Positions 22,738 to 39,108 of a DNA stretch of 64,000 nt are shown here, piece by piece. The notes below the pieces were generated by a model, which worked only from the letters and a program-made list of their open reading frames with translations, was not told the DNA's origin and did no database searches. A program made the position numbers and the translations under genes. How positions within the stretch are numbered: position 1 is the stretch's first letter; each line of letters starts with the position of its first letter. This stretch comes from Ignavibacteria bacterium (GTDB lineage: Bacteria; Bacteroidota; Ignavibacteria; Kapaibacteriales; UBA2268), in the NCBI GenBank assembly GCA_037445895.1, contig JBBIJO010000003.1, forward strand, positions 14,109-78,108, written 5' to 3'.

Positions 22738-24549
22738 TTATTCTTGCATTTTATACATTTGTTCAATTAATTCAGAATACTTTCGTTCGACAACGTGGCG
22801 TTTGATACTTAATTTTGGGCTCAATTCTCCGCCATCGACAGTAAAAGATTCTGTGAGAAGAGCAAATTTACGAACCCGTTCGAACTTTGCAATATCCTTT
22901 TGCAAATAGTCTATTTCATCTTTAATAGTCTTAATGATTTGGGGATTTGCAACTAATTCCGATAGTGTATTGTAAGATATATTGAAGGTTTCTGCAAGAG
23001 ATTTCAACTCGTCGAAATTAGGTAATATTAACGCAGTGTTGTATTCACGATTGTCACCAATTAGAATACACTGGTCGATATATTTACTTTGACAGAGTAA
23101 ATTTTCGATTGGTTGCGGTGCAATGTTTTTGCCCCCACTGTTTACGAAAATGTATTTTTTCCTGTCGGTAATCTTAATGTTTCCTTTTTTTGTGATTAAT
23201 CCTATATCTCCGGTATAAAGCCAACCGTCTTCGTCGATTGCCGATTTTGTTGCATTAATGTCGTTCCAGTATCCTTGCATAACATTAGGACCTCGGACTA
23301 ATATTTCACCATCATCGGCAATTTTTACTTCAATTCCATCTAATGGTTTACCAACCGTTCCGATTTCGAAGTCATTGTCTCGGTTTACACTTACGACCGG
23401 AGAAGCTTCGGTCAATCCATACCCTTCGAGGACCCGATAACCAAGCGACCAGAAAAAAATGTTAACATCCGGGTTTAATGGTGCTCCGCCCGAAACAAAT
23501 CGGATGAATTGGATTCCGAATTTTTCGCGAATTTTTGAGAAAACAAGTTTATCGGCTAACTTATATTTGCTCTTGATAATTGGGTTTAATTTTCCTTCTA
23601 TTTTATTTAAGATATAATTTTTTCCAGCTTTAATTGCCCAAAAGAAAATCTTTTGTTTTATAGAGCTTTCCTTTTCTATAGCAGCGAAGATGCGTTTTTT
23701 TATAACTTCCAGCAATCGAGGAACTGTTGTCATTAAAGTGGGTTGAATTTCTTTGATATTCGTTGGAATTGTATCAATTGACTCTGCCAGTGCAATGACT
23801 GCACCACATCGGAATGCGGCATAATAGCCAGTTGTCCTTTCATAAGAATGACACCAAGGAAGAAAAGAAAGGAATACATCCTTCTCCCCAAAATCTATTG
23901 CCTTGGCAGCTGCTTCAATATTCGAAATAACATTGTGATGGGTAAGAACAACCCCTTTTGGTTCGCCAGTTGTTCCGCTTGTATAAATAATAGTCAATAT
24001 ATCGTCGGGTTTGATTTTTCCAATACTTTGTAGTATTATTTGCCGACGCATTGCTTCCGTTCTTAAAACAGTACCTGTTTCAATTATCGAATAGTATGTC
24101 TTTGCCGAAATTTCTATTTCATCGGAAACTTTTATATTATCGAGTACTATTATGTGGCGAATTGATTGGATATTATTAACGACTCCAAGAATTTTGTTCA
24201 GTTGGAAATTATTTGAAACAACAACCGCAATAGCCTCGCAGTTGTTGAAAATATATTCTTCTTGTTTTGGTGTTGTGCTGGGGAAAATTGGAACACTCGT
24301 AGCACCTATTGTTGCAATTGCCACATCGACAATTACCCACTCAATCCTATTTTCGGAAACTAATCCAACTCTATCGCCGCTTCGTATCCCAAAATTCAGC
24401 AATCCAATAGCGAATTTTTCTATTCTATCCCATAATTCACTATAAGTAACATTCACGTAGTCCCCGTTTTGTTTGTATCTGAAAGCAGTTTTGCTTGAAC
24501 CATATTTTTGGCATATTAGATAAAACATTTCAGGAATAGAGGAATACAT
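22738..24549 (-). CDS. Long-chain fatty-acid--CoA ligase (AMP-dependent synthetase).
   Basis: AMP-binding signature IIYTSGTTGEPKGV and GYGLTE are present in a 603-aa product. Confidence 0.8.
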   Translation of the reverse strand: MYSSIPEMFYLICQKYGSSKTAFRYKQNGDYVNVTYSELWDRIEKFAIGLLNFGIRSGDRVGLVSENRIEWVIVDVAIATIGATSVPIFPSTTPKQEEYIFNNCEAIAVVVSNNFQLNKILGVVNNIQSIRHIIVLDNIKVSDEIEISAKTYYSIIETGTVLRTEAMRRQIILQSIGKIKPDDILTIIYTSGTTGEPKGVVLTHHNVISNIEAAAKAIDFGEKDVFLSFLPWCHSYERTTGYYAAFRCGAVIALAESIDTIPTNIKEIQPTLMTTVPRLLEVIKKRIFAAIEKESSIKQKIFFWAIKAGKNYILNKIEGKLNPIIKSKYKLADKLVFSKIREKFGIQFIRFVSGGAPLNPDVNIFFWSLGYRVLEGYGLTEASPVVSVNRDNDFEIGTVGKPLDGIEVKIADDGEILVRGPNVMQGYWNDINATKSAIDEDGWLYTGDIGLITKKGNIKITDRKKYIFVNSGGKNIAPQPIENLLCQSKYIDQCILIGDNREYNTALILPNFDELKSLAETFNISYNTLSELVANPQIIKTIKDEIDYLQKDIAKFERVRKFALLTESFTVDGGELSPKLSIKRHVVERKYSELIEQMYKMQE

Positions 24550-24759
24550 TTTTCATTTCATCCATTTTAATTTTGAACAAAACCAAAATTATATATTAGA
24601 TAATTTTTTCCAAATTTTAGCAATCAATTTTTCTGTTTTTTTAATATCGTGCGATAGATGTAGTAATAAATCTTTGGGGAATGGCATTCTTTACTGTGTG
24701 CCGGAGGTTAGGTAAAATGTCTTGTAGTTTTGGAAAGGCTTTTTCGGGAAAAATCATAT

Positions 24760-25359
24760 TTATTTTGCAATGTAGTCAGGGCAATCCAACCTTAATTCGC
24801 TTTTATAAAGGGACTTTTCGAGTAGCATACAGTAGTGCATATTTTTTTCCCTTTTGTAGTATTTGCAACTATAACACATTCTTTGTAATGATATGATGCC
24901 CGACTCATATAGTTGGTGGATTATATCTAGGAAGTTTTGAAGCAAATTTTCCTTTGCATTCGGGCTTAAGTTTTGTATTGGCTCGAGCAATTTGTTTGTG
25001 TATAAAGAAATTTCTTGGTATAATACGCGACCTGTATGGGTAAGTGCTAATTCAAAACTTCTCGAGTCGGATGGATTGCGTTCCTTTGTGATAAGTTCTT
25101 TGCGAATAAGTGATTGTATTGCATCGCTTACGGTAGGTTTTGTAAGATGAAACTCTTGTGCCAAATAGCTTACCTTGCATTTTTCTCGGCTATGGGTATG
25201 CAAAAAAATCAATATTTGTATTTGGATAGGGGAAAGTCCGAATTTTTTGCTTTGCTCCCAAAGAAGCACCCGAAAAACCTCGGCAATTCGCTCCAGTGCC
25301 GCAATTATTCGATGTTCTATTTGGCTATTTTGTATTTCTAAATCGAATGATGACGCCAT
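24760..25359 (-). CDS. MarR-family winged-helix regulator with a C-terminal Cys-rich extension.
   Basis: A MarR-like wHTH (SPIQIQILIFL...LTKPTVSDAIQSLIRKELI) is followed by a tail with C-x2-C-x11-C-x15-C (CYSCKYY...HYC...LDC). Confidence 0.6.
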   Translation of the reverse strand: MASSFDLEIQNSQIEHRIIAALERIAEVFRVLLWEQSKKFGLSPIQIQILIFLHTHSREKCKVSYLAQEFHLTKPTVSDAIQSLIRKELITKERNPSDSRSFELALTHTGRVLYQEISLYTNKLLEPIQNLSPNAKENLLQNFLDIIHQLYESGIISLQRMCYSCKYYKREKNMHYCMLLEKSLYKSELRLDCPDYIAK

Positions 25360-25415
25360 ACAAAGGGGGTAACCGATTTTTTGTAGAATTTATTTTAATC
25401 GGTTACCCATTTCGT

Positions 25416-26000
25416 TTAAAATTCTCCTTCTTTTACGTAAGGATAACACCAAGTCGTTACGGTTAAAACAACGGCTTTAAACCACGCATTATACATCGAT
25501 TCGACTTCCGATAGCGAATGTCCCATTTTCGACAGGAATGGCTTGATTGTGAACGTTATTGGGTAAATAAAAGCAACCATATATCTAAAATTGACGAAAG
25601 GAACCGAGTGCACACCGTCGGTTTGGTTCTTTTTGATTTTGTGGTGTCGTTTTGCAATTTCATATTGATAATCAAGCCATTTTTGGTCATAATCTTTGAG
25701 GCAAATATCTTTTATCCATTGCCCAAATCGCTGTCGAACTGCATCGAGATATTCAAGAATCGGGTTTCCACCATCAGTGAAAAAGTATACCAAATGCTCG
25801 TTTGAGCCAACATATCCATACCACAGGTCGAGAATTTCATCGATTTGCCCGCTCAAAATTTCCCCTGCCATTCGAAGATATCTGGTATCTTCGTCGGTCC
25901 AAAGCAAGGTTTTTTTGAGTAGTTCCAATTCGTCTAATGTTATTGGCGATATTTCAAGATACGATTGTCCAAAATCATATCCTTTAATATTTCTTTCCAT
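25416..26000 (-). CDS. Protoglobin (Pgb, single-domain globin related to globin-coupled sensors).
   Basis: The whole 194-aa product is collinear with archaeal protoglobins as I recall them. Shared segments are LEDL.LLK, ILDLWYGYVGS, VYFFT, YLDAVRQRF, WLDYQYEIAKRHHKIKKNQTD, VPFVNFRYMVAFIYPIT, KPFLSKMGHS, MYNAWFKA and WCYPYVKEGEF. Confidence 0.8.
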   Translation of the reverse strand: MERNIKGYDFGQSYLEISPITLDELELLKKTLLWTDEDTRYLRMAGEILSGQIDEILDLWYGYVGSNEHLVYFFTDGGNPILEYLDAVRQRFGQWIKDICLKDYDQKWLDYQYEIAKRHHKIKKNQTDGVHSVPFVNFRYMVAFIYPITFTIKPFLSKMGHSLSEVESMYNAWFKAVVLTVTTWCYPYVKEGEF

Positions 26001-26322
26001 ACATTCTCCTTTGTTTTGTTGTTAAATATAATTTGTTATTTGGTAGATTTTAATGTGCGATTTCGCATAGATGACTGTCTTTCACTAGCATTTCTGTTAT
26101 AATGCTATTTCACATTGCAGGCGGACTTTTGTTGGGCACAAGGCTATCAAAATATTGCATAAAAAATCAACTAAATTTTGAAAATACAAAATTAATTAGG
26201 AATCCTAACTAAAACAATTAATTTTTTTTCATTTTTTATTCAAATTATGGAATTCTTGATTTTGGAAGTTTTGTTTTAATAAATCGTTAAAGAATACGTT
26301 TAATTAATTTTTTGAACAATAT

Positions 26323-29300
26323 TTGATAAATGTGCTTCGCTTTTGTATTGCCGCAATCTTTTTTTTGGCAAGTTACAATCTGAATTCTGGGACTTTCGTT
26401 GTTAAGTTTAAGAAGAATTTCGACAGTAAATTGCTTAATGAACGCTTCTCGAATATCAAAGCTCATTTTTCGGAGTTACAGTTTTCTAAGATGTTACAAA
26501 CTTCTGGTAACAAACTCAGAATTTCCTCCCAAAGTTTATTATCTTCTAATATGGCAAATAAATTATTGGGTTACTATGTTCTCGAAATACCGGACTCGTT
26601 AATTGCGAGAACATTAAGTGAAATTAATAGTTTTCCCGAAATCGATTTCATTGAACCAAATATTAAAATTAGTATTGAACAGGATAATGTTAGAGATTCG
26701 GATTTGCAAAAGCAATGGTATATTAATTTTGTGAGGGCACACGAAGCTTGGAAGAAATCTACTGGCAAAGGGATTCGAGTTGGTATTATAGACACGGGAA
26801 TTGATTTTGAACACGAAGATTTGAAAAATCGTATTTGGATAAATCCGCAGGAAGATATTAACCATACTGGTCAGTTCGAGCCTTGGCCCGATAGCGTTAA
26901 AATTAATGGAATCACAGGAGATTTAAATAGAGTTGATGACGACGGGAATGGGTTTATTGATGATATTATCGGATATGATTTTGTTAATCAAACTTATGGA
27001 AATTTAGGTGATTATTCTATTCCCGATGCTATTCCATTCGATGAACACGGTCACGGAACAATGGTTGCTGGCGTGATAGCTGCTGATATTAATGGGATGG
27101 GTATAGTTGGGGTAGCCCCAGGGGTTAAAGTAGTTGCTCTTCGCGCGTTTGATTTGACAGGCAATGCAGAAATCAAAGATATTGCTAATGCGATAGTATA
27201 TTCTGCGCTGAACGGAATTAATGTGTTAAACCTTTCGTTCGGTTCCCAAGAGTATTCTCGTTTGCTCGAAGATGCTATTTCTTTTGCACAATCTATGGGC
27301 TGTATAATTGTTGCATCCGCCGGAAATGATGGAACTATTATTCCACACTATCCATCGGATTTCAATGGGGTTATTTCTGTCGGTTCAATTACCCCCGATG
27401 GGACTATTGCTAATTCAAGCAATTTCGGGCCTAATGTTGATATATTTGCTCCTGGAGTAGAAATTTATACTACTTCTTTAAATAATACTTATCGTTATAT
27501 CTCCGGGACTTCCTTTTCTGCACCAGTTGTTTCTGCCGGTTGCGCTCTTCTTCTTTCTTTTGATTCTACATTGAAGGGAGAGGAAATACTTGGAATTTTG
27601 AAAGCCACACAGAAAAAAATTTTAGGGAAAGGGATGAAATACTCTCACGGTTATGTTGATTTTGCCGAATCTGTAAGCTTTTTTGGCTCTTCGCGGTTCG
27701 AGATTTTGAATATTCACAACGATGATGAATTTTTGAAAGAAGAGGTAATTACAGTTCCAATACAAATTTTTGCATATTCTCCATTTTTCTTTCAATATAA
27801 CCTTTACCTATACAAAAACGACACGACCTTGGTGCAAAGATTAGTTGAACGCTCAAGCGAACAATCGATAGGAAACCGTTTCGACTTTAATATTGGCAAT
27901 TTAGACGAAGGGCAATATACTTTAAAACTAATTGCTACTTTGCGAAATGGCAACCAAATCGAAAAGTCTGTTCGTTTTTTTGTATATAGTCGGGATTCTT
28001 CGATAAAAGTGGAATCGTTAGATTGGGCATCTTGTATTTACGAAAATCGAACCTTTTATGTGTTGGTAACAAGTAGCAATTTACCTACATTTTGCAGAGT
28101 AATCTTCTTTGCGAAAGATGGGAAAAAATTGTTGGAATTAAGTGACGAAACTTATTCACAATCACACTTTATACCTTTTTTGGGTATTGAGAATATAGCC
28201 GATAGGCCCCTAACATTTAGAATCCTTTATACTACAAAATCTGGAAAGGAATATAGTATTGACACAGCCATTAATGAGTTTGGATACAACAATCCTATTA
28301 GTTATTCAAAAAAGTTTAATACATTGCCTTTGTCGTATTTATTTAATTATACTGTTCCTATAAATTCATCGCGCTTCGATGGTTTAATGATAAATCCCTA
28401 TGACAATTTGAATTGGAAGAATCTTGAGCTATACAAATTTTCTGATACAGGATTTGCAAAATTGGCTGAATTGAAAGAACCTTGGATTCCAGTAGATACA
28501 GGAGATTCCAACGGTGATGGTAAATTAGAAGTTTTAACTACACTTTTAGGTCGAACAAGACTTTTGCAACCGGCGGGGGAACCACAAAATTATTTCGATA
28601 ATGTTTTGTTTCAAAGCGAGCCGAATTCTACTCTATGGGCTGCAAAAATGAAGGATTTCAATGGAGACGGCAAAGACGAGCTAATTTGTTTCGATGATAC
28701 ATCTATCCTCGTTATAAGCTATGAAGACGGAAAGTATAAAACCATTTCTCGGATTCTACCTCAAGATTCTTTCGGTGTTGTTGGCACTAAACCGAACATC
28801 CAAATTGCAGATTTTGATTCCGATGGAAACTATGAACTTGCATTATTTACGACTCGAGGGTATCTTCTCATCTACCAATACGATAAAGCCTTGGAACGTT
28901 TCGACCTTGAATACTCACTAAAAACCGAAGGCGACCCCTTTTCTACTGCAGCTTGTATTGGTAAGTTAAAATCAAACCAAAATTTCTCGATTTTCTTTAT
29001 TCAATCGAAATACTTCGAGGACAAGACCCACGAACAATTAAAAGGGTCGTTGTGGAATTTATTCAAAGTCGATGCAAGTTCAAAGGATACATATTCAATA
29101 ACTTACGAAAAATCATTTTATGGAGTGAGGAGTGGCAGTATTCCACAAGGTATTTTTTATAGGAATGGTATAAATGCTGGGAATCTCGATAAAGAAGAGG
29201 GAGACGAGCTATTGGTTTCTTTGTTTCCAAACTTCTATGTGCTGAAATTTGGAGCAGACAGCATTGGATTTACTCCGATTTTGTGGATACCTTTTGTTTA

Positions 29301-30573
29301 TTCAAACTCAGCGATTGTAAATGATTTCGATAACAATGGAGTAAATGAGTTCGGTATTTCAAATTGGGATGGCTTGCGTTTCTATGAGTTAAATGTGAAA
29401 GTTAAACTGTTTACACCATCATTTCTCGATGGCTGGTTGGATTCCACCAATAAAATAAATCTTTATTGGGAAAAAGTTGAAAATGCCGATAAATACGAAA
29501 TTTACGAGGTTTTGCCGAATGGAAGTATTAACCTTGTTGGTATGAGCTATTCGAATGATTTTATGTTGGAAGTCGTTAATCCACCTAACTCTATCGAGTA
29601 TATAGTCCGTGGAATAAATGATAGTGGAAATTACGAGCCTAGTGATTTTACTAATCCAATACGAATTTACTTTTTTAAACCAACCCGTGCATTATCTGTC
29701 GCAGTTGTATCGCCAAAGCAAATAGAAATTCATTTTACGGGGAAACTTCCATTGGTTTTCGCAAACAAATCCGTAATTCAAATCTATGATGAGAATTTGA
29801 AAGAGATTGAGTTCGAAACACTTCAAAGAGCAAACGATACAATTCTAGTTGTGACATTTTTCCAAAAATTGTGGATTGGTAAATATTTAGCCCAAATTGG
29901 GAATTTTCGGGATTATTGGGGTAACCGAACGATTTCAGATGGTATTGAATTCGAAATAGACACAACAAATGTAGTTGATTCTTTGCTCTTTGTTCAAAAA
30001 TTTGAATTTGTAAATAACAATAAGATTAGACTATATTTCAACTCAGCTTTGGATTCTATTTCTGCTACAAACCTGTTGAATTATCGAATTGAACCTTTCG
30101 GAGAAATTGTTAATGTCGAACTCGGTCAAGATATTTCTTCGATACAAATAGAGCTTGGTTCGAATGTTAATATAGTTTCGCTTGGAGTTGACTTCTATCT
30201 TGTTTTGGGGAAAATTTACTCATTAGATTCGACTCGAATTGTTGTTCCACCATTTAATACTATCGCACTAACTCGCGAAGCTCAAGAAATTTCGCATGCT
30301 TTTGCCTATCCTAACCCAATAGATTTATCTAAAGATGAACAATTGACTTTCGCTAATATACCATCGAGTTCAATAGTTGAAATATATGATGCGTATTTCC
30401 GTAAAGTTTTGGAATTAAAGAATGATAGATGGAAAGGAGGGATTCAAATTGATATACGGAATCAAAATCGATTTACTTTTGAAAGTGGAATTTACTATTT
30501 TCGGGTTCGGAAGTTGAACGGTGATGGTATTGAAATTATTTCAAATTTGAAAAAATTTGCAGTAGTCCAATGA
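26323..30573 (+). CDS. Subtilisin-like (S8) serine protease with FG-GAP/VCBS-like repeats and a T9SS C-terminal sorting domain.
   Basis: TTG start with signal peptide. Catalytic triad motifs are GIIDTGID (Asp), HGHGTMVAG (His) and GTSFSAPVVSAG (Ser). Repeats: DSNGDGKLEV, DFNGDGKDELICFDD, DFDSDGNYELALF and DFDNNGVNEFGIS. The last 80 aa (GIYYFRVRKLNGDGIEIISNLKKFAVVQ) look like a Por-secretion-tail. Confidence 0.8.
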   Translation: MINVLRFCIAAIFFLASYNLNSGTFVVKFKKNFDSKLLNERFSNIKAHFSELQFSKMLQTSGNKLRISSQSLLSSNMANKLLGYYVLEIPDSLIARTLSEINSFPEIDFIEPNIKISIEQDNVRDSDLQKQWYINFVRAHEAWKKSTGKGIRVGIIDTGIDFEHEDLKNRIWINPQEDINHTGQFEPWPDSVKINGITGDLNRVDDDGNGFIDDIIGYDFVNQTYGNLGDYSIPDAIPFDEHGHGTMVAGVIAADINGMGIVGVAPGVKVVALRAFDLTGNAEIKDIANAIVYSALNGINVLNLSFGSQEYSRLLEDAISFAQSMGCIIVASAGNDGTIIPHYPSDFNGVISVGSITPDGTIANSSNFGPNVDIFAPGVEIYTTSLNNTYRYISGTSFSAPVVSAGCALLLSFDSTLKGEEILGILKATQKKILGKGMKYSHGYVDFAESVSFFGSSRFEILNIHNDDEFLKEEVITVPIQIFAYSPFFFQYNLYLYKNDTTLVQRLVERSSEQSIGNRFDFNIGNLDEGQYTLKLIATLRNGNQIEKSVRFFVYSRDSSIKVESLDWASCIYENRTFYVLVTSSNLPTFCRVIFFAKDGKKLLELSDETYSQSHFIPFLGIENIADRPLTFRILYTTKSGKEYSIDTAINEFGYNNPISYSKKFNTLPLSYLFNYTVPINSSRFDGLMINPYDNLNWKNLELYKFSDTGFAKLAELKEPWIPVDTGDSNGDGKLEVLTTLLGRTRLLQPAGEPQNYFDNVLFQSEPNSTLWAAKMKDFNGDGKDELICFDDTSILVISYEDGKYKTISRILPQDSFGVVGTKPNIQIADFDSDGNYELALFTTRGYLLIYQYDKALERFDLEYSLKTEGDPFSTAACIGKLKSNQNFSIFFIQSKYFEDKTHEQLKGSLWNLFKVDASSKDTYSITYEKSFYGVRSGSIPQGIFYRNGINAGNLDKEEGDELLVSLFPNFYVLKFGADSIGFTPILWIPFVYSNSAIVNDFDNNGVNEFGISNWDGLRFYELNVKVKLFTPSFLDGWLDSTNKINLYWEKVENADKYEIYEVLPNGSINLVGMSYSNDFMLEVVNPPNSIEYIVRGINDSGNYEPSDFTNPIRIYFFKPTRALSVAVVSPKQIEIHFTGKLPLVFANKSVIQIYDENLKEIEFETLQRANDTILVVTFFQKLWIGKYLAQIGNFRDYWGNRTISDGIEFEIDTTNVVDSLLFVQKFEFVNNNKIRLYFNSALDSISATNLLNYRIEPFGEIVNVELGQDISSIQIELGSNVNIVSLGVDFYLVLGKIYSLDSTRIVVPPFNTIALTREAQEISHAFAYPNPIDLSKDEQLTFANIPSSSIVEIYDAYFRKVLELKNDRWKGGIQIDIRNQNRFTFESGIYYFRVRKLNGDGIEIISNLKKFAVVQ

Positions 30574-31055
30574 AATTAGTTCTTTTCATCCTTATTGTTT
30601 CTTTCGTGGGTGGGACCGCGTGCCAGGATGGATTAAGCCCCGACTTTGGAAAAAAGGAGGGTAATATTTATGGGAATTTAATTATTGTTTCGGGAACCGA
30701 TAGTTGGCCCAGCCCGGATTCTGCTTTAGAGTTAAGGGTTGTTGCTTTCAAGGAGTATCCACCGAAAGATATAATTGGCGAAATTGTTTCTGGTAATGCC
30801 TACTTTACCGATACTTTACCACGTTTCGTCGATACTATTCCTTTTTCTTTGAAGATAGACACTCCCCCAGTCGAGTTGAAATACATTGTTGGAGCATTAC
30901 GTTATGGCTCGCTTGTTCAATGGAAAGTAATCGGGGTTTATACTTTGGATACTTCTTCGAAGCAGCCGGCTACGATTTTTGTCCAACGAGGCGATTTAAT
31001 AAACAAAATAAACATTTATGTTGATTTTTACAATCTGCCCGAACAACCTTTTTGA
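30570..31055 (+). CDS. Small lipoprotein, function unknown.
   Basis: 161 aa with signal peptide and Cys (VGGTAC). ATGA overlaps at both ends imply translational coupling with the protease and the TonB receptor. Confidence 0.5.
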   Translation: MKLVLFILIVSFVGGTACQDGLSPDFGKKEGNIYGNLIIVSGTDSWPSPDSALELRVVAFKEYPPKDIIGEIVSGNAYFTDTLPRFVDTIPFSLKIDTPPVELKYIVGALRYGSLVQWKVIGVYTLDTSSKQPATIFVQRGDLINKINIYVDFYNLPEQPF

Positions 31056-33244
31056 TTGATATGGGTTCGAGAACTGTTTTTATATTTTGTATTTTTCTAT
31101 TGAGTTTGAAAGTTTTGGCATACGATTTTGTCGGATTCGTTTTCGATAAAAATTCGAATCGTCCGCTCGTTGGAGTAACTGTTCGGCTCGAAGGGACAAA
31201 TTACGGGACAATTTCCAACAAAAGCGGATTTTTTCGGCTGACTAATCTACCAAAAGGTGAATTTAACATTATCGTTAGTGCAGTTGGATACGACAGCTTT
31301 CACGGTAGGATTAGCATCCCGTTTATTGATACATTAAAAATTTTTCTTGCCGAGAAAACACTTAGAACAGACGAGGTTGTAGTTTCTGCAACAAAAAGAT
31401 TGCAAGCGGTCCAAGAGGTGCCGGTTAGTGTTTCGGTTATTTCCGAAGAGTTTTTTCAAAAGAGAAATTATTTGCGTTTCGACGAAGCGCTTAGAAATAC
31501 TTCGGGAGTAATAGTGAACAAGGACAATATTAATATTCGCGGTTCTTCGGGGTTCTCACTTGGCTTGGGTTCAAGGGTTGCTTACCTTGTCGATGGATTA
31601 CCTTTCCTTTCTGGCGACAATGCCGATGCAAAATTTGATATTGTCCCCGTCGAAATGATTAATCGAGTGGAAATTGTTAAAGGTTCGGGCTCTGCATTGT
31701 ATGGCTCGAGTGCGATAGGTGGAGTTGTGAATATATTAACGAAAGAACCAACAGACACGACTGCTTATAACATTAGCCTGCAAGGTGGGGTTTATACTAA
31801 ACCTAAATATAAACAGTGGGTATATACAAATAAACTGACTTCTAAAAGCTCTATTAGTGGTTATTATTCGTCGGATTTGGGATATTTTAAACTTGGTTGT
31901 GGAGGCTACGTCTTAAACGATGAAAGCTATAGAAAATATGATAAAAGTTTGCGAGGGAATATCTTTGCTAAACTAAGCAAGGAATTTAGGAATTACGGGA
32001 AACTTATGATTTTTGGTTTTTTTGCTTCGGATAAAAGAGATGATTGGGTGTATTGGAATAGTTTGGACAGTGCAACTATACCTCCAACAAATACAGATTT
32101 GAACCGAAAGTTGCTTTCGAACAAAGGGAGTTTATCGTTGGATTTTAAATTAATAGTTACCGAAAAGACATTTGCGAACATTCGAAGTTCGCTTTACAGC
32201 ACGGATCTATCGATGAATATTCCTTTAAATAATCCAGAATATCGGCAAAGTTCAGCATATAGTTTCAACAACGAGTTACAGTTTAACCATCATTTCCCTA
32301 ATAATATCTTTTTAACTTATGGGTTGAATTATATTCATAATTGGGTAAAATCTAACATCTATGGTTCTCATAAGCAAAACTGGTTGTCTTCCTACGCACA
32401 AGTTGAGCTTTCGAACTTGGATGGCTTGATTATTACTCTTGGAGATAGATTAGATGTTGAAAAATCTGATTCCACCGACACGCAAGTAGAAATTTCCCCT
32501 AAATTGGGGATAAACTACTTATTAGATAAAAGCAACAGCTTGCGTTGCTCGATTGGTCGCGGATTTCGAAGCCCATCGTTAGCCGAAAGATTCTCGTCGA
32601 TTAAATACAGCGGTTTCGAAGTTGTTCCAAACATTGGGTTGAAGTCGGAAAAATCGTGGTTTGCCGAGATAGGCTCTTTGTTAGAATTTCAGGATTGGTT
32701 TTTTCCTACGCAATTTGATTTTGCTTTGTTTTATACTAGATACAACGACTTAATCGAACCGCAATTCGATTTAACGTTGCCAAAACCTGTAATAAAGTTC
32801 CAAAATATTACCAATGCAGAAATCTTTGGAACTGAATTTTATTTGCGAACTTTGCTGTTTCATACCTTACCTTTTACTTTTGGGTTAACCTTTCTCGAGC
32901 CAAGAGATATTGATTCTGCAACGATTTTGAAGTATCGACCAAAGTGGAGTATTGTAACCTCGCTCGCGTTGCCTTATGATAATCTCAATTTTGTTGCCGA
33001 TTTTCGCTATATTAGCAAAATAGACAGAATAGATGAATCACTTCGTATCCAGGTATCTGATTACGATGCACGCGTTCCAATCTATGTGTTAGATTTTTCT
33101 TTGCTCGTCGATTTGAGGAAATACAAGTTACCTTTCCAAGTGAATCTTAGTGTTCAAAATGCTTTAGACTATTATTACGTCGAAATGGTTGGAAATCTGG
33201 CAATGACGAGATTGGTTAGCCTAAAGGTTCAATATTTAAAATAA
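31052..33244 (+). CDS. TonB-dependent receptor with an N-terminal carboxypeptidase-regulatory-like domain.
   Basis: Signal peptide, CarbopepD_reg-like segment (FVGFVFDKNSNRPLVGVTVRLEGTNYGT), plug motifs (DEVVVSATK, NIRGSSG, YLVDGLP, IEIVKGSGSALYGSSAIGGVVNI), about 730 aa. There is no SusD partner. Confidence 0.75.
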   Translation: MIDMGSRTVFIFCIFLLSLKVLAYDFVGFVFDKNSNRPLVGVTVRLEGTNYGTISNKSGFFRLTNLPKGEFNIIVSAVGYDSFHGRISIPFIDTLKIFLAEKTLRTDEVVVSATKRLQAVQEVPVSVSVISEEFFQKRNYLRFDEALRNTSGVIVNKDNINIRGSSGFSLGLGSRVAYLVDGLPFLSGDNADAKFDIVPVEMINRVEIVKGSGSALYGSSAIGGVVNILTKEPTDTTAYNISLQGGVYTKPKYKQWVYTNKLTSKSSISGYYSSDLGYFKLGCGGYVLNDESYRKYDKSLRGNIFAKLSKEFRNYGKLMIFGFFASDKRDDWVYWNSLDSATIPPTNTDLNRKLLSNKGSLSLDFKLIVTEKTFANIRSSLYSTDLSMNIPLNNPEYRQSSAYSFNNELQFNHHFPNNIFLTYGLNYIHNWVKSNIYGSHKQNWLSSYAQVELSNLDGLIITLGDRLDVEKSDSTDTQVEISPKLGINYLLDKSNSLRCSIGRGFRSPSLAERFSSIKYSGFEVVPNIGLKSEKSWFAEIGSLLEFQDWFFPTQFDFALFYTRYNDLIEPQFDLTLPKPVIKFQNITNAEIFGTEFYLRTLLFHTLPFTFGLTFLEPRDIDSATILKYRPKWSIVTSLALPYDNLNFVADFRYISKIDRIDESLRIQVSDYDARVPIYVLDFSLLVDLRKYKLPFQVNLSVQNALDYYYVEMVGNLAMTRLVSLKVQYLK

Positions 33245-37530: not shown

Positions 37531-39108
37531 ATGAGAAAGATATTTATTATTATTGCTATTTTTTCTTTTCTTGCTTTTATAGTTTTAAACACAGTTTTTC
37601 GTACTTGGGATGTTCAATCTCCTTTGGAAAAATTGAAAGAACAATACGAAAATAAGGAAGACACGAAAGCCGTCGATCACTCGCAATTTTCAATATTGAA
37701 GCAAGTATTCGAACACCCTTCGGAAGTAACGAAAGCTTGCGTCAGTTGCCATAACCTTACATCTCATCAAGTAATGAACTCGAGCCACTGGAATTGGGAG
37801 CGCGAAGAATATGTAAAAGGAAAGGGTGTAGTTTATTTAGGGAAAAAGAATGCCATTAATAATTTTTGCATTTCTTCGGAAGGTAACGAACCAAGTTGTG
37901 CGAAGTGCCACATTGGGTTTGGTATGGATAGCAAAGGCAAAGTGTTTACCGATTCGGTAAACATTGACTGTTTGGTTTGCCACGACAATACAGAAACTTA
38001 TAGTAAAGCACCCGAAAAAGGGGGAGCGCCTTCGGAAACGGTAAACCTTAGTTTTGTTGCACAAAATGTTGGGAGACCCCGAAGATCTAATTGTGGAATT
38101 TGTCATTTTTATGGTGGTGGTGGAAATAATGTTAAGCATGGTGATCTTGAAAAGGCAATGTTTGAACCGACCAAAGAGATAGATGTTCATATGGGTGTTG
38201 ACGGTGCTAATATGCAGTGTGTTGATTGCCACGTAACTAAACAACATAATATTTCGGGAAGGCTTTATTCTCTTTCTTCGATGAACCGCAACAGGGTATT
38301 TTGCGAACAATGTCACTTGTCGGAACCACACACCGACGAAATACTTAATGAACATACTCTTAAAGTGTCGTGCCAAACTTGTCATATTCCTATTTATGCA
38401 AAAGTCAACGCGACGAAAACTTATTGGGACTGGTCAACCGCTGGGAAACTTCGAAATGGACAACCATACGTTGAGGAAGATAGTGTAGGAAATGACAAAT
38501 ATATGTCGATAAAGGGAACTTTTGTTTGGGGAAAAAATCTTAGACCCGATTATATTTGGTTTAATGGAAGTGCAACTCATTATTTAAAAGGGGATATTAT
38601 AGAGGATACGACAAAAGTTGTTGTATTAAATAAGTTGTTTGGTTCGTATTCCGATTGGGAGTCGAAAATTTACCCTGTAAAAACTTTTCGTGCTAAGCAA
38701 CCATTCGACCCGATTAATAAAATCCTTATTAGCCCAAAACTTTATGCTGAACGGAAAGGCGAAGGTGGATTCTGGAAGGATTTCGATTGGATAAAGTCTT
38801 CCGAAATAGGTATGAAATTAGCAAATTTGCCTTTTAGCGGGAAGGTGTCGTTTATTGAAACAGAAATGTACTGGCCTGTCAACCATATGGTGGCACCGAA
38901 GGGACAAAGTTTACAATGTAAGAGTTGCCATACACGGAATGGATCTCGTTTGGCTGGTTTGACCGATTTTTACTTGCCGGGGCGCGATAGCTCTGCGACT
39001 GTAGAATTTATAGGCAAATGGCTTGTTATTTTGGTTTTTATAGGTGTTGTTTTTCATGGAAGTTTAAGAATTTATAATAATTTTCGCAATAAACAGGAGA
39101 TGAATTGA
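37531..39108 (+). CDS. Octaheme c-type cytochrome, membrane-anchored (tetrathionate-reductase OTR or HAO-like family).
   Basis: Eight CxxCH motifs (CVSCH, CAKCH, CLVCH, CGICH, CVDCH, CEQCH, CQTCH, CKSCH). N-terminal signal peptide and C-terminal TM helix (WLVILVFIGVVF). RBS GGAGAG. Confidence 0.8.
   Translation: MRKIFIIIAIFSFLAFIVLNTVFRTWDVQSPLEKLKEQYENKEDTKAVDHSQFSILKQVFEHPSEVTKACVSCHNLTSHQVMNSSHWNWEREEYVKGKGVVYLGKKNAINNFCISSEGNEPSCAKCHIGFGMDSKGKVFTDSVNIDCLVCHDNTETYSKAPEKGGAPSETVNLSFVAQNVGRPRRSNCGICHFYGGGGNNVKHGDLEKAMFEPTKEIDVHMGVDGANMQCVDCHVTKQHNISGRLYSLSSMNRNRVFCEQCHLSEPHTDEILNEHTLKVSCQTCHIPIYAKVNATKTYWDWSTAGKLRNGQPYVEEDSVGNDKYMSIKGTFVWGKNLRPDYIWFNGSATHYLKGDIIEDTTKVVVLNKLFGSYSDWESKIYPVKTFRAKQPFDPINKILISPKLYAERKGEGGFWKDFDWIKSSEIGMKLANLPFSGKVSFIETEMYWPVNHMVAPKGQSLQCKSCHTRNGSRLAGLTDFYLPGRDSSATVEFIGKWLVILVFIGVVFHGSLRIYNNFRNKQEMN

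Follow-up and report, generated by a model that had tools for sequence, protein, structure and literature searches.

Protoglobins (Pgbs) have been dissected structurally and used as engineering scaffolds, and their cellular role remains a puzzle. The closest described proteins are the Pgbs of Methanosarcina acetivorans (MaPgb, PDB ID: 2veb) and Aeropyrum pernix (PDB ID: 7ute). Pgb is a member of the sensor (S) globin lineage (PMC7475203), to which the globin-coupled sensors (HemAT and others) with their linked sensing or regulatory functions also belong. Here, we describe a Pgb operon in a 64,000-nucleotide stretch of DNA from an Ignavibacteria bacterium (contig JBBIJO010000003.1, positions 14,109 to 78,108), the whole of which was analyzed and is called the window hereafter. 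The Pgb gene (25416-26000, minus strand) encodes 194 amino acids. It is followed on the same strand, after a spacer of 56 nt (25360-25415), by the gene of a MarR-family regulator of 199 amino acids (24760-25359, minus strand), which is the last gene of the operon and is designated MarR4C.

The window Pgb resembles the M. acetivorans and A. pernix proteins in length, collinearity, and identity (~55%), and the proximal His F8, TrpB9, TyrB10, PheCD1, ValE7, PheE11, PheG8, and IleG11 are identical, as is Cys E20. Unlike those two proteins, it is encoded by a bacterial host of the FCB group, and its gene shares an operon, under the control of an operator, with the gene of a dedicated regulator. No such regulatory context (operon, dedicated regulator) was found for protoglobins in the searchable literature, and a literature search for the MarR4C regulator or its operator also found nothing. 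This conserved combination of Pgb, MarR4C, and operator appears to be undescribed so far.

As to the regulator, MarR4C has the same winged helix-turn-helix (wHTH) and dimerization fold as MepR, MexR, OhrR, and ST1710. Like classical MarR autorepressors, it is encoded inside its own operon, with a palindromic operator over its own promoter. Unlike every solved MarR protein, it carries an extra C-terminal module of 45 amino acids with four invariant cysteines (Cys4); the redox-sensing cysteines of OhrR and MexR are in the core, whereas those of MarR4C are in this tail. NsrR controls hmp, and the logic that we propose for MarR4C is similar to that of NsrR and IscR (Rrf2 family) and FNR, namely, a labile Cys-ligated metal center controlling DNA binding, with globins among the targets. 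A local, redox-themed regulon is a further point of similarity; the protein family, the Cys spacing, and the operator all differ, and a cluster in MarR4C is putative. The RsrA-SigR-thioredoxin and OxyR-glutaredoxin circuits likewise place a Cys-rich sensor over thiol-redoxin genes whose products could reset the sensor. The commonest MarR4C target is a gene for a CPxC thioredoxin-like protein (69 of 85 loci), and a glutaredoxin gene is found in Chloroflexota operons. However, these circuits have no sequence relationship to MarR4C, and the window operon contains no redoxin gene.

We propose, with a probability of roughly 0.6, that the locus is a negatively autoregulated Pgb–MarR4C operon in which the Cys4 module is the sensor and Pgb is the target. 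Three other readings (Pgb as the sensing partner, a structural zinc knuckle with a separate ligand, and heme sensing) were each rated lower and are considered below together with the evidence.

The protoglobin

The window protein matched the Pfam family PF11563 with E = 8.7e-31 (107.5 bits; cut-off 25). Residues 4-194 align end to end with residues 5-195 of MaPgb (PDB ID: 2veb, E = 1.9e-72), the residue mapping gave 107 identical residues out of 193, and A. pernix Pgb (7ute) was a further PDB match. The protein consists of a single domain, including the N-terminal pre-A extension, and is collinear with the solved Pgbs. The proximal His F8 is H119 inside the RHH motif, and the distal and tunnel residues (W60, Y61, F74, V88, F92, F144, and I148) all match MaPgb; ArgE10, ArgF7, and Cys E20 are kept in the window protein as well. 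H119, W60, Y61, F92, and F144 are invariant or nearly so in 23 bacterial homologs. A preliminary description, made from the letters of this DNA alone, had called the product a protoglobin on the basis of the motifs WLDYQYEI..RHH and WCYPYVKEGEF. Both motifs were found, the open reading frame layout (194 amino acids, 56-nt spacer, same strand) is exactly as described there, and, judged by its sequence, the open reading frame at 25416-26000 is a true protoglobin with a heme pocket that appears intact.

The protein collection contained 1873 Pgb homologs, many of them from Bacteroidota, Ignavibacteria, Kryptoniota, and Kapaibacteriota. Because many of these bacterial homologs are already annotated as “protoglobin domain-containing protein,” a bacterial protoglobin is not new in itself (see also PMC7475203). 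The window Pgb is a stand-alone protein of 194 amino acids and is not fused to an output domain, the arrangement of a globin-coupled sensor.

In several Bacteroidota-type operons (L127, L134, L147, L153, and L164), a second Pgb paralog follows the cytoplasmic one, approximately 600 to 1250 nt after the Pgb start. It has 216 to 228 amino acids, an N-terminal signal peptide, a match to PF11563 (E = 4e-24), and RHY in place of RHH. This paralog looks like an exported protoglobin.

The MarR4C regulator and its Cys4 tail

MarR4C matched PF12802 (MarR_2) with E = 5e-14 (52.6 bits; cut-off 27) over residues 40-101 only and PF01047 (MarR) with E = 2e-10 (40.7 bits; cut-off 24.6). The matched region (25057-25242, minus strand) corresponds to the wHTH DNA-binding region, and its recognition-helix motif TK(A/P)T(I/V)SD is almost invariant in both alignments of MarR4C homologs. 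In the AlphaFold2 model (pLDDT 83), a complete MarR fold extends over approximately residues 7-152, and helices 7-40, 108-129, and 133-152, which include the dimerization helices, surround the wHTH. The best Foldseek matches were MepR, MexR, and ST1710, with target-normalized TM-scores up to 0.81 against MepR and MexR, and a PDB profile search returned the same and similar proteins. The model identifies MarR4C as a MarR-family regulator with the full fold, including the dimerization helices, in agreement with the type assigned in the preliminary description. No NCBIfam model reached its cut-off in a scan of MarR4C, with ArnR and MsvR matching far below theirs. Among the Fe-S regulator families (Rrf2 NsrR/IscR, FNR, SoxR, WhiB, ArnR, and SufR), the sole match was Rrf2 (E = 0.01, 16.4 bits; cut-off 30), covering the HTH alone.

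The solved MarR proteins all stop where the tail of MarR4C starts (approximately profile position 155). The 45-amino-acid tail (residues 156-199; 24763-24894, minus strand) has the motif QRMC162-x2-C165 ... H175-x-C177 ... R-x-D-C193-P and is a putative metal- or redox-sensing module. The conservation of the four cysteines, which the preliminary description had left to an alignment, proved to be strict. The motif QRMC-x2-C...H-x-C...R-x-DC is invariant in 65 homologs. When 35 tails were compared at greater depth, including relatives of 25 to 35% identity, the four cysteines were the only tail residues left invariant. In this deeper set, the tail histidine is conserved in ~90% (otherwise Tyr or Pro), and the residue after the last cysteine, Pro194 in the window, is variable (Lys, Ala, Gln, or Glu elsewhere).

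MarR4C has 1499 full-length homologs of ~200 amino acids and occurs in at least 548 GTDB species representatives, which makes the family a large one. A search with the tail only among 1.84 billion representatives gave 186 clusters at 50% identity and no other domain architecture, effectively all being the C-termini of MarR proteins of ~200 amino acids or fragments of them. A single TPR fusion (P0270) was found, and P0249, with six stretches, was rejected as a spurious low-complexity repeat. A structure model of the tail alone matched no solved fold. The Cys4 tail is without a Pfam or NCBIfam model, a solved relative in the PDB, or a paper that we could find.

The tail could be a structural Zn(Cys)4 knuckle that stabilizes the dimer, in which case the regulator would answer a small ligand bound between the dimerization and DNA-binding domains. 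The four invariant cysteines and the short β-strands that the AlphaFold2 model gives the tail, at lower confidence, resemble small zinc knuckles, and the core is a canonical MarR fold nearest the ligand-responsive MepR, MexR, and ST1710. However, QRM, the ~90% conserved histidine, and R-x-D beside the cysteines exceed the needs of a bare knuckle. The theme of the cargo genes is thiol and heme redox rather than efflux or catabolism, and no candidate ligand pathway is linked to the regulator. We consider this reading unlikely.

The tail also bears on heme sensing. A C-P dipeptide close to a His or Tyr is reminiscent of heme-regulatory motifs, and the window protein has such a dipeptide (C193-P194) with a nearby histidine. 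If these residues bound heme, a heme-responsive repressor would allow globin apoproteins to be made only when heme is available. The two kinds of globin among the targets and the presence of the heme-sensing MarR protein PefR among the Foldseek matches (rank 48) point in the same direction. This reading is nevertheless very unlikely: Pro194 is not invariant, the commonest targets (the Trx77 and DUF2024 proteins, see below) are not heme proteins, and a single axial heme ligand does not need four invariant cysteines.

Two variants of the regulator were observed. In a close relative (L168, 4651-5049, and L169, 2849-3247; Pgb 72% identical), the regulator is called as 132 amino acids without the Cys4 tail; the gene may be frameshifted, a pseudogene, or naturally truncated. 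In a Chloroflexota homolog of 306 amino acids (P0403), glutaredoxin and MarR domains are annotated in one product. The two domains are either genuinely fused or joined by a read-through in the gene call; the case stresses the link between redoxin and regulator.

Linkage of Pgb and MarR4C

Linkage was analyzed in two samples, 85 loci selected through the regulator and 80 metagenomic loci fetched by a Pgb profile. Among the Pgb-selected loci, 57 of 80 had MarR4C on the same strand within 2.8 kb (42 downstream and 15 upstream), and only 12 loci lacked the regulator despite having 1.5 kb or more on either side. The adjacency of Pgb and MarR4C is far beyond chance. The direct order of Pgb and regulator was also found in L001 (the closest relative, with 77% identity to the window in Pgb and 69% in the regulator), a Melioribacter metagenome-assembled genome, Kryptoniota, a “Chlorobi” CHB1 bin, and Kapaibacteriota. 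The order Pgb-DUF2024-regulator occurs in Chitinophagales, Saprospiraceae, and the isolate Flavobacterium maritimum. Regulators of the upstream type are 24 to 38% identical to that of the window and keep the four cysteines. The divergent ones, for which a search was made from one of them, belong to Chloroflexota (Anaerolineae, Roseiflexus, and Chloroflexaceae). All four Chloroflexota regulators sampled through the regulator adjoin Pgb, usually with a glutaredoxin gene between. The preliminary description was to be abandoned if the globin had no significant family match or if the two genes were never adjacent in relatives. It stands on both counts, as Pgb matches PF11563 significantly and the pair is kept in Ignavibacteriota, Kryptoniota, Kapaibacteriota, Bacteroidota, and Chloroflexota.

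A neighbor-joining tree of 134 regulators placed only Pgb-linked proteins on its deep branches, and the thioredoxin-linked regulators form nested Bacteroidota clusters. The sampling for this tree was biased; taken with the four unbiased Chloroflexota cases, the tree nevertheless suggests an old link with Pgb, with the Bacteroidota cargo as a secondary development.

In all 85 regulator-selected loci, the regulator gene ends a short operon of variable content with all genes on one strand. The first gene encodes a 77-amino-acid CPxC thioredoxin-like protein (Trx77), a relative of PDB 2k8s, in 69 loci and Pgb in 10, and the two were never found together in the sampled loci. A DUF2024 gene, present in 57 of the 85, encodes a Cys3His protein related to PDB 2hfq, and DUF2024 has been termed “metal-binding” (PMC6393860). 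A truncated hemoglobin (PF01152) is encoded in 10 loci and a GGACT-like protein in nine, and either can come next, ahead of the regulator. A secreted protein of 245 amino acids (sec245) occurs in 30 loci with an operator in front (L008, L023, L045, and others). Its features are an N-terminal CDKCG motif and a GGDGGHGGG stretch rich in Gly and His, and a Pfam and NCBIfam scan gave no match. Further co-regulated genes encode glutaredoxin and a CPGC protein. Across most of the Bacteroidota, Trx77, DUF2024, and the truncated hemoglobin, rather than Pgb, appear to be under this regulator and operator.

The preliminary description had read the pair as a heme sensor plus regulator. In the corresponding split globin-coupled sensor, Pgb would sense a gas and contact MarR4C, perhaps via the Cys-rich tail, and MarR4C would be the output only. 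The membership of Pgb in the S globin lineage (PMC7475203) is consistent with such a role, as are the deep Pgb–MarR4C linkage across Chloroflexota and the FCB group with differing gene orders and, within the biased sampling, the Pgb-linked deep branches of the regulator tree. On the other hand, approximately 75 of the 85 regulator-selected loci have no nearby Pgb, and the Cys4 tail and the operator are unchanged there, which suggests that the regulator can sense on its own. Moreover, the operator marks Pgb as a target gene, with its own copy when it is separately transcribed, and the second, signal peptide-bearing Pgb of some operons could not touch a cytoplasmic regulator. Sensors also rarely sit under tight repression by their own output. 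The split sensor is therefore rated as clearly improbable. Unlike in HemAT-type sensors, Pgb and the DNA-binding protein are separate polypeptides, and the evidence on Pgb points to a regulated gene, not an input domain. The sensor part of the preliminary description is not supported in its original form.

Additional gene arrangements were observed around the operon. In Kapaibacteriota (L166 and L167, 1-3700), the Pgb–MarR4C operon (Pgb 73% identical) is divergent to a nosZ cluster, a nitrous-oxide reductase cluster comprising cytochrome c, the NosZ propeller, NosL, and NosD. In 26 loci (L002-L004, L017-L022, and others; Tenacibaculum and many Flavobacteriia), a 247-amino-acid AAA ATPase gene and/or a gene for a YggS-type PLP-binding protein lies 3′ of the regulator gene, often with overlapping stop and start codons.

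Operator and promoter

The operator palindrome of the window (26192-26212, no strand), is an exact match that was also detected as an inverted repeat. Its core, TTAGGA-W-TCCTAA, occupies 26196-26208, and the extended arms occupy 26192-26201 and 26203-26212. The core is the single exact match in the window, against an expected number of 0.01. The search across loci allowed up to two mismatches to TTAGGAWTCCTAA, and the consensus of 190 unique sites is the 19-bp palindrome TAGTTAGGAwTCCTAACTA. At least one site was located within 2.6 kb upstream in 77 of 82 non-redundant regulator loci. Many regulator loci have extra sites before internal genes, and elsewhere in the 10-kb loci there are almost none. 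In most Pgb loci, the operator lies 30 to 112 nt upstream of Pgb; the window clade is an exception, with ~190 nt to the Pgb ATG. Pgb loci without a regulator in reach are also without an operator, except for L136. In Chloroflexota, identical half-sites (TTTAGGAGTACTAAA) directly follow a TTGACA-17-TATAAT promoter, and in the Chloroflexota locus L172, where Pgb is on the opposite strand, a second operator copy is found in front of Pgb. Because Pgb has an operator like the other target genes, and its own copy when it is separately transcribed, we regard it as a direct target of MarR4C.

These data also dispose of the view that the adjacency is fortuitous and the palindrome a chance AT-rich repeat. 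The window is AT-rich (37% GC), and palindrome-like matches with two mismatches occur in it at about the chance rate. However, the exact site is expected only 0.01 times per window, and the site and the gene pair recur in well over 100 independent loci of several phyla. The comparative data refute this explanation, to which we assign a negligible probability.

A Bacteroidota-type −7 box, TAATTTTG (TAnnTTTG; 26187-26194, minus strand), was read from the sequence 1 nt after the operator core, facing Pgb. The operator runs into such a box (offset +1 or −3) in ~95 of the 190 sites, and the box always faces the operon, never the reverse. According to the known Bacteroidetes consensus, the −7 box would be a functional promoter, with transcription starting at approximately 26180. 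A scan for sigma-70 promoters and terminators yielded no useful information, with promoter-like sites rarer than in shuffled sequence; the relevant promoter is of the Bacteroidota type. An operator inside the promoter is the classical arrangement of MarR repressors, from which binding and a negative sign of regulation would be expected. A conserved palindrome at the promoter of the regulator's own operon (77 of 82 loci and the window) is the arrangement of MarR autoregulation, for which binding of MarR4C to the site is presumed.

The operator of the window is bracketed by a perfect 10-nt inverted repeat, AAAATTAATT/AATTAATTTT (26188-26197 and 26216-26225). This repeat may extend the binding region or may merely reflect AT-richness.

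Leader and intergenic hairpin

A Shine-Dalgarno sequence, AAGGAG (26006-26011, minus strand), was read 5 nt before the Pgb ATG and is conserved in L001, L168, L005, and L030. The leader of ~180 nt contains a short upstream open reading frame (uORF; 26110-26160, minus strand) encoding MQYFDSLVPNKSPPAM, followed by a stop codon. Its C-terminal end is conserved, as MKFLKNKSPP-stop in L001, MKCPKNKSPP-stop in L168, and ..NKSPS.. in L166, with synonymous changes (AGT/AGC and CCG/CCA). The uORF may encode a regulatory leader peptide that stalls at Pro-Pro-stop. At E ≤ 1, nothing in Rfam matched the region 24500-26500, so the long leader is not a known riboswitch.

The spacer between Pgb and the regulator (25360-25415, minus strand) is occupied by a stem-loop with a perfect 12-bp stem, GGGTAACCGATT/AATCGGTTACCC, at 25367-25408 (predicted ΔG −21 kcal/mol), found as an inverted repeat. 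A hairpin fills this spacer in seven related loci, with the same sequence and a T-run in L001 and L168 and with different sequences in L005, L030, L049, and L166. It is probably a partial terminator or attenuator that lowers the regulator relative to Pgb. The operator, the hairpin, and the uORF are additions beyond the preliminary description.

Proposed mechanism

Here, we propose a mechanism for the autoregulated operon. The gene identities, the operon order, the overlap of operator and promoter, and the co-inheritance of Pgb and regulator can be read directly from the compared loci. A MarR4C dimer would bind TAGTTAGGAwTCCTAACTA, filling the promoter spacer and overlapping the −7 box, and would thereby block RNA polymerase. 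The Cys4 module of the regulator would serve as the sensor by holding a metal center, which may be an Fe-S cluster or a Zn-thiolate. When O2, reactive oxygen species, or NO oxidizes or nitrosylates this center, the signal would travel via the adjoining dimerization helix, and MarR4C would leave the DNA. Derepression would then yield protoglobin, which as the effector would bind or detoxify O2, NO, or reactive nitrogen species, and the intergenic hairpin would hold the synthesis of the regulator low.

The nature of the signal is suggested by the genes under the operator: oxidative or nitrosative stress or O2/NO handling is indicated because the cargo consists of thiol-redoxins, a Cys3His protein, two kinds of globin, and, in some loci, a second Pgb with a signal peptide, with a nosZ cluster as a neighbor in one Kapaibacteriota operon. 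The Cys4 site may contain an Fe-S cluster, Zn, or thiols only; four invariant cysteines would be compatible with Fe-S.

Several points weigh against this mechanism. The metal site in the tail is hypothetical: the tail models are of moderate to low confidence (pLDDT 63-73 for the tail in the full model and 69 for the tail alone) and match no known fold, and the cysteines, spaced C-x2-C-x9-15-C-x15-C, do not form a canonical Fe-S or zinc-ribbon signature. That MarR4C represses rather than activates is deduced from the position of the operator only, and the signal from cargo genes that are themselves without proven functions; the biochemical role assigned to Pgb is likewise presumptive. The window operon itself lacks a redoxin gene. 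The ~180-nt leader with its conserved uORF suggests a further layer of control, and genomes of the Trx77 type might hold a Pgb elsewhere.

A wider proposal is that MarR4C represents an unrecognized class of metal-center gas or redox sensors, perhaps the first Fe-S MarR. Its members would have been dedicated to switching on Pgb since before Chloroflexota and the FCB group diverged, and they would have been reused in Bacteroidota for truncated hemoglobin and thiol-redoxin genes. We offer this only tentatively and consider it rather doubtful as a whole.

Neighboring genes in the window

An S8 peptidase gene (26323-30573, plus strand) diverges from the Pgb operon across the common upstream region 26001-26322 and is followed on its 3′ side by an open reading frame of 161 amino acids and a TonB-dependent receptor (31052-33244). 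The preliminary description had stated that the pair shares its upstream region with these protease and TonB genes. The shared region is real. Co-regulation of the divergent genes was considered and set aside, since no relative but L001, the closest one, retains the protease/TonB synteny and since the −7 box is directed at Pgb. Downstream of MarR4C, a gene for an AMP-binding acyl-CoA ligase (22738-24549) and a SusC/SusD pair are found. At ~11 kb from the Pgb operon is a gene for a multiheme cytochrome c (37531-39108, plus strand; Cytochrome_cB E = 1e-64, c7-/c3-like motifs), and multiheme cytochrome genes are likewise found near the Pgb operon in L005. L001 (= L006, contig CAZPSM010000028.1) carries the label “uncultured Hyphomicrobiales bacterium,” which is probably wrong because its Pgb, its regulator, and its synteny with the S8 peptidase have their nearest counterparts among Ignavibacteria- and Kapaibacteria-like sequences.

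Biological implications

The analysis defines a large uncharacterized MarR subfamily with a new C-terminal Cys4 domain and gives a regulatory context to two orphan structural-genomics folds, the relatives of 2k8s and 2hfq. Because Pgb has a dedicated, conserved regulator and a defined operator, its role becomes tractable as the question of what frees MarR4C from TTAGGAwTCCTAA. Cultured hosts exist in F. maritimum and possibly in Roseiflexus and Melioribacter. If MarR4C is indeed a metal-center sensor of the proposed class, its inducer would disclose the physiological role of protoglobins.

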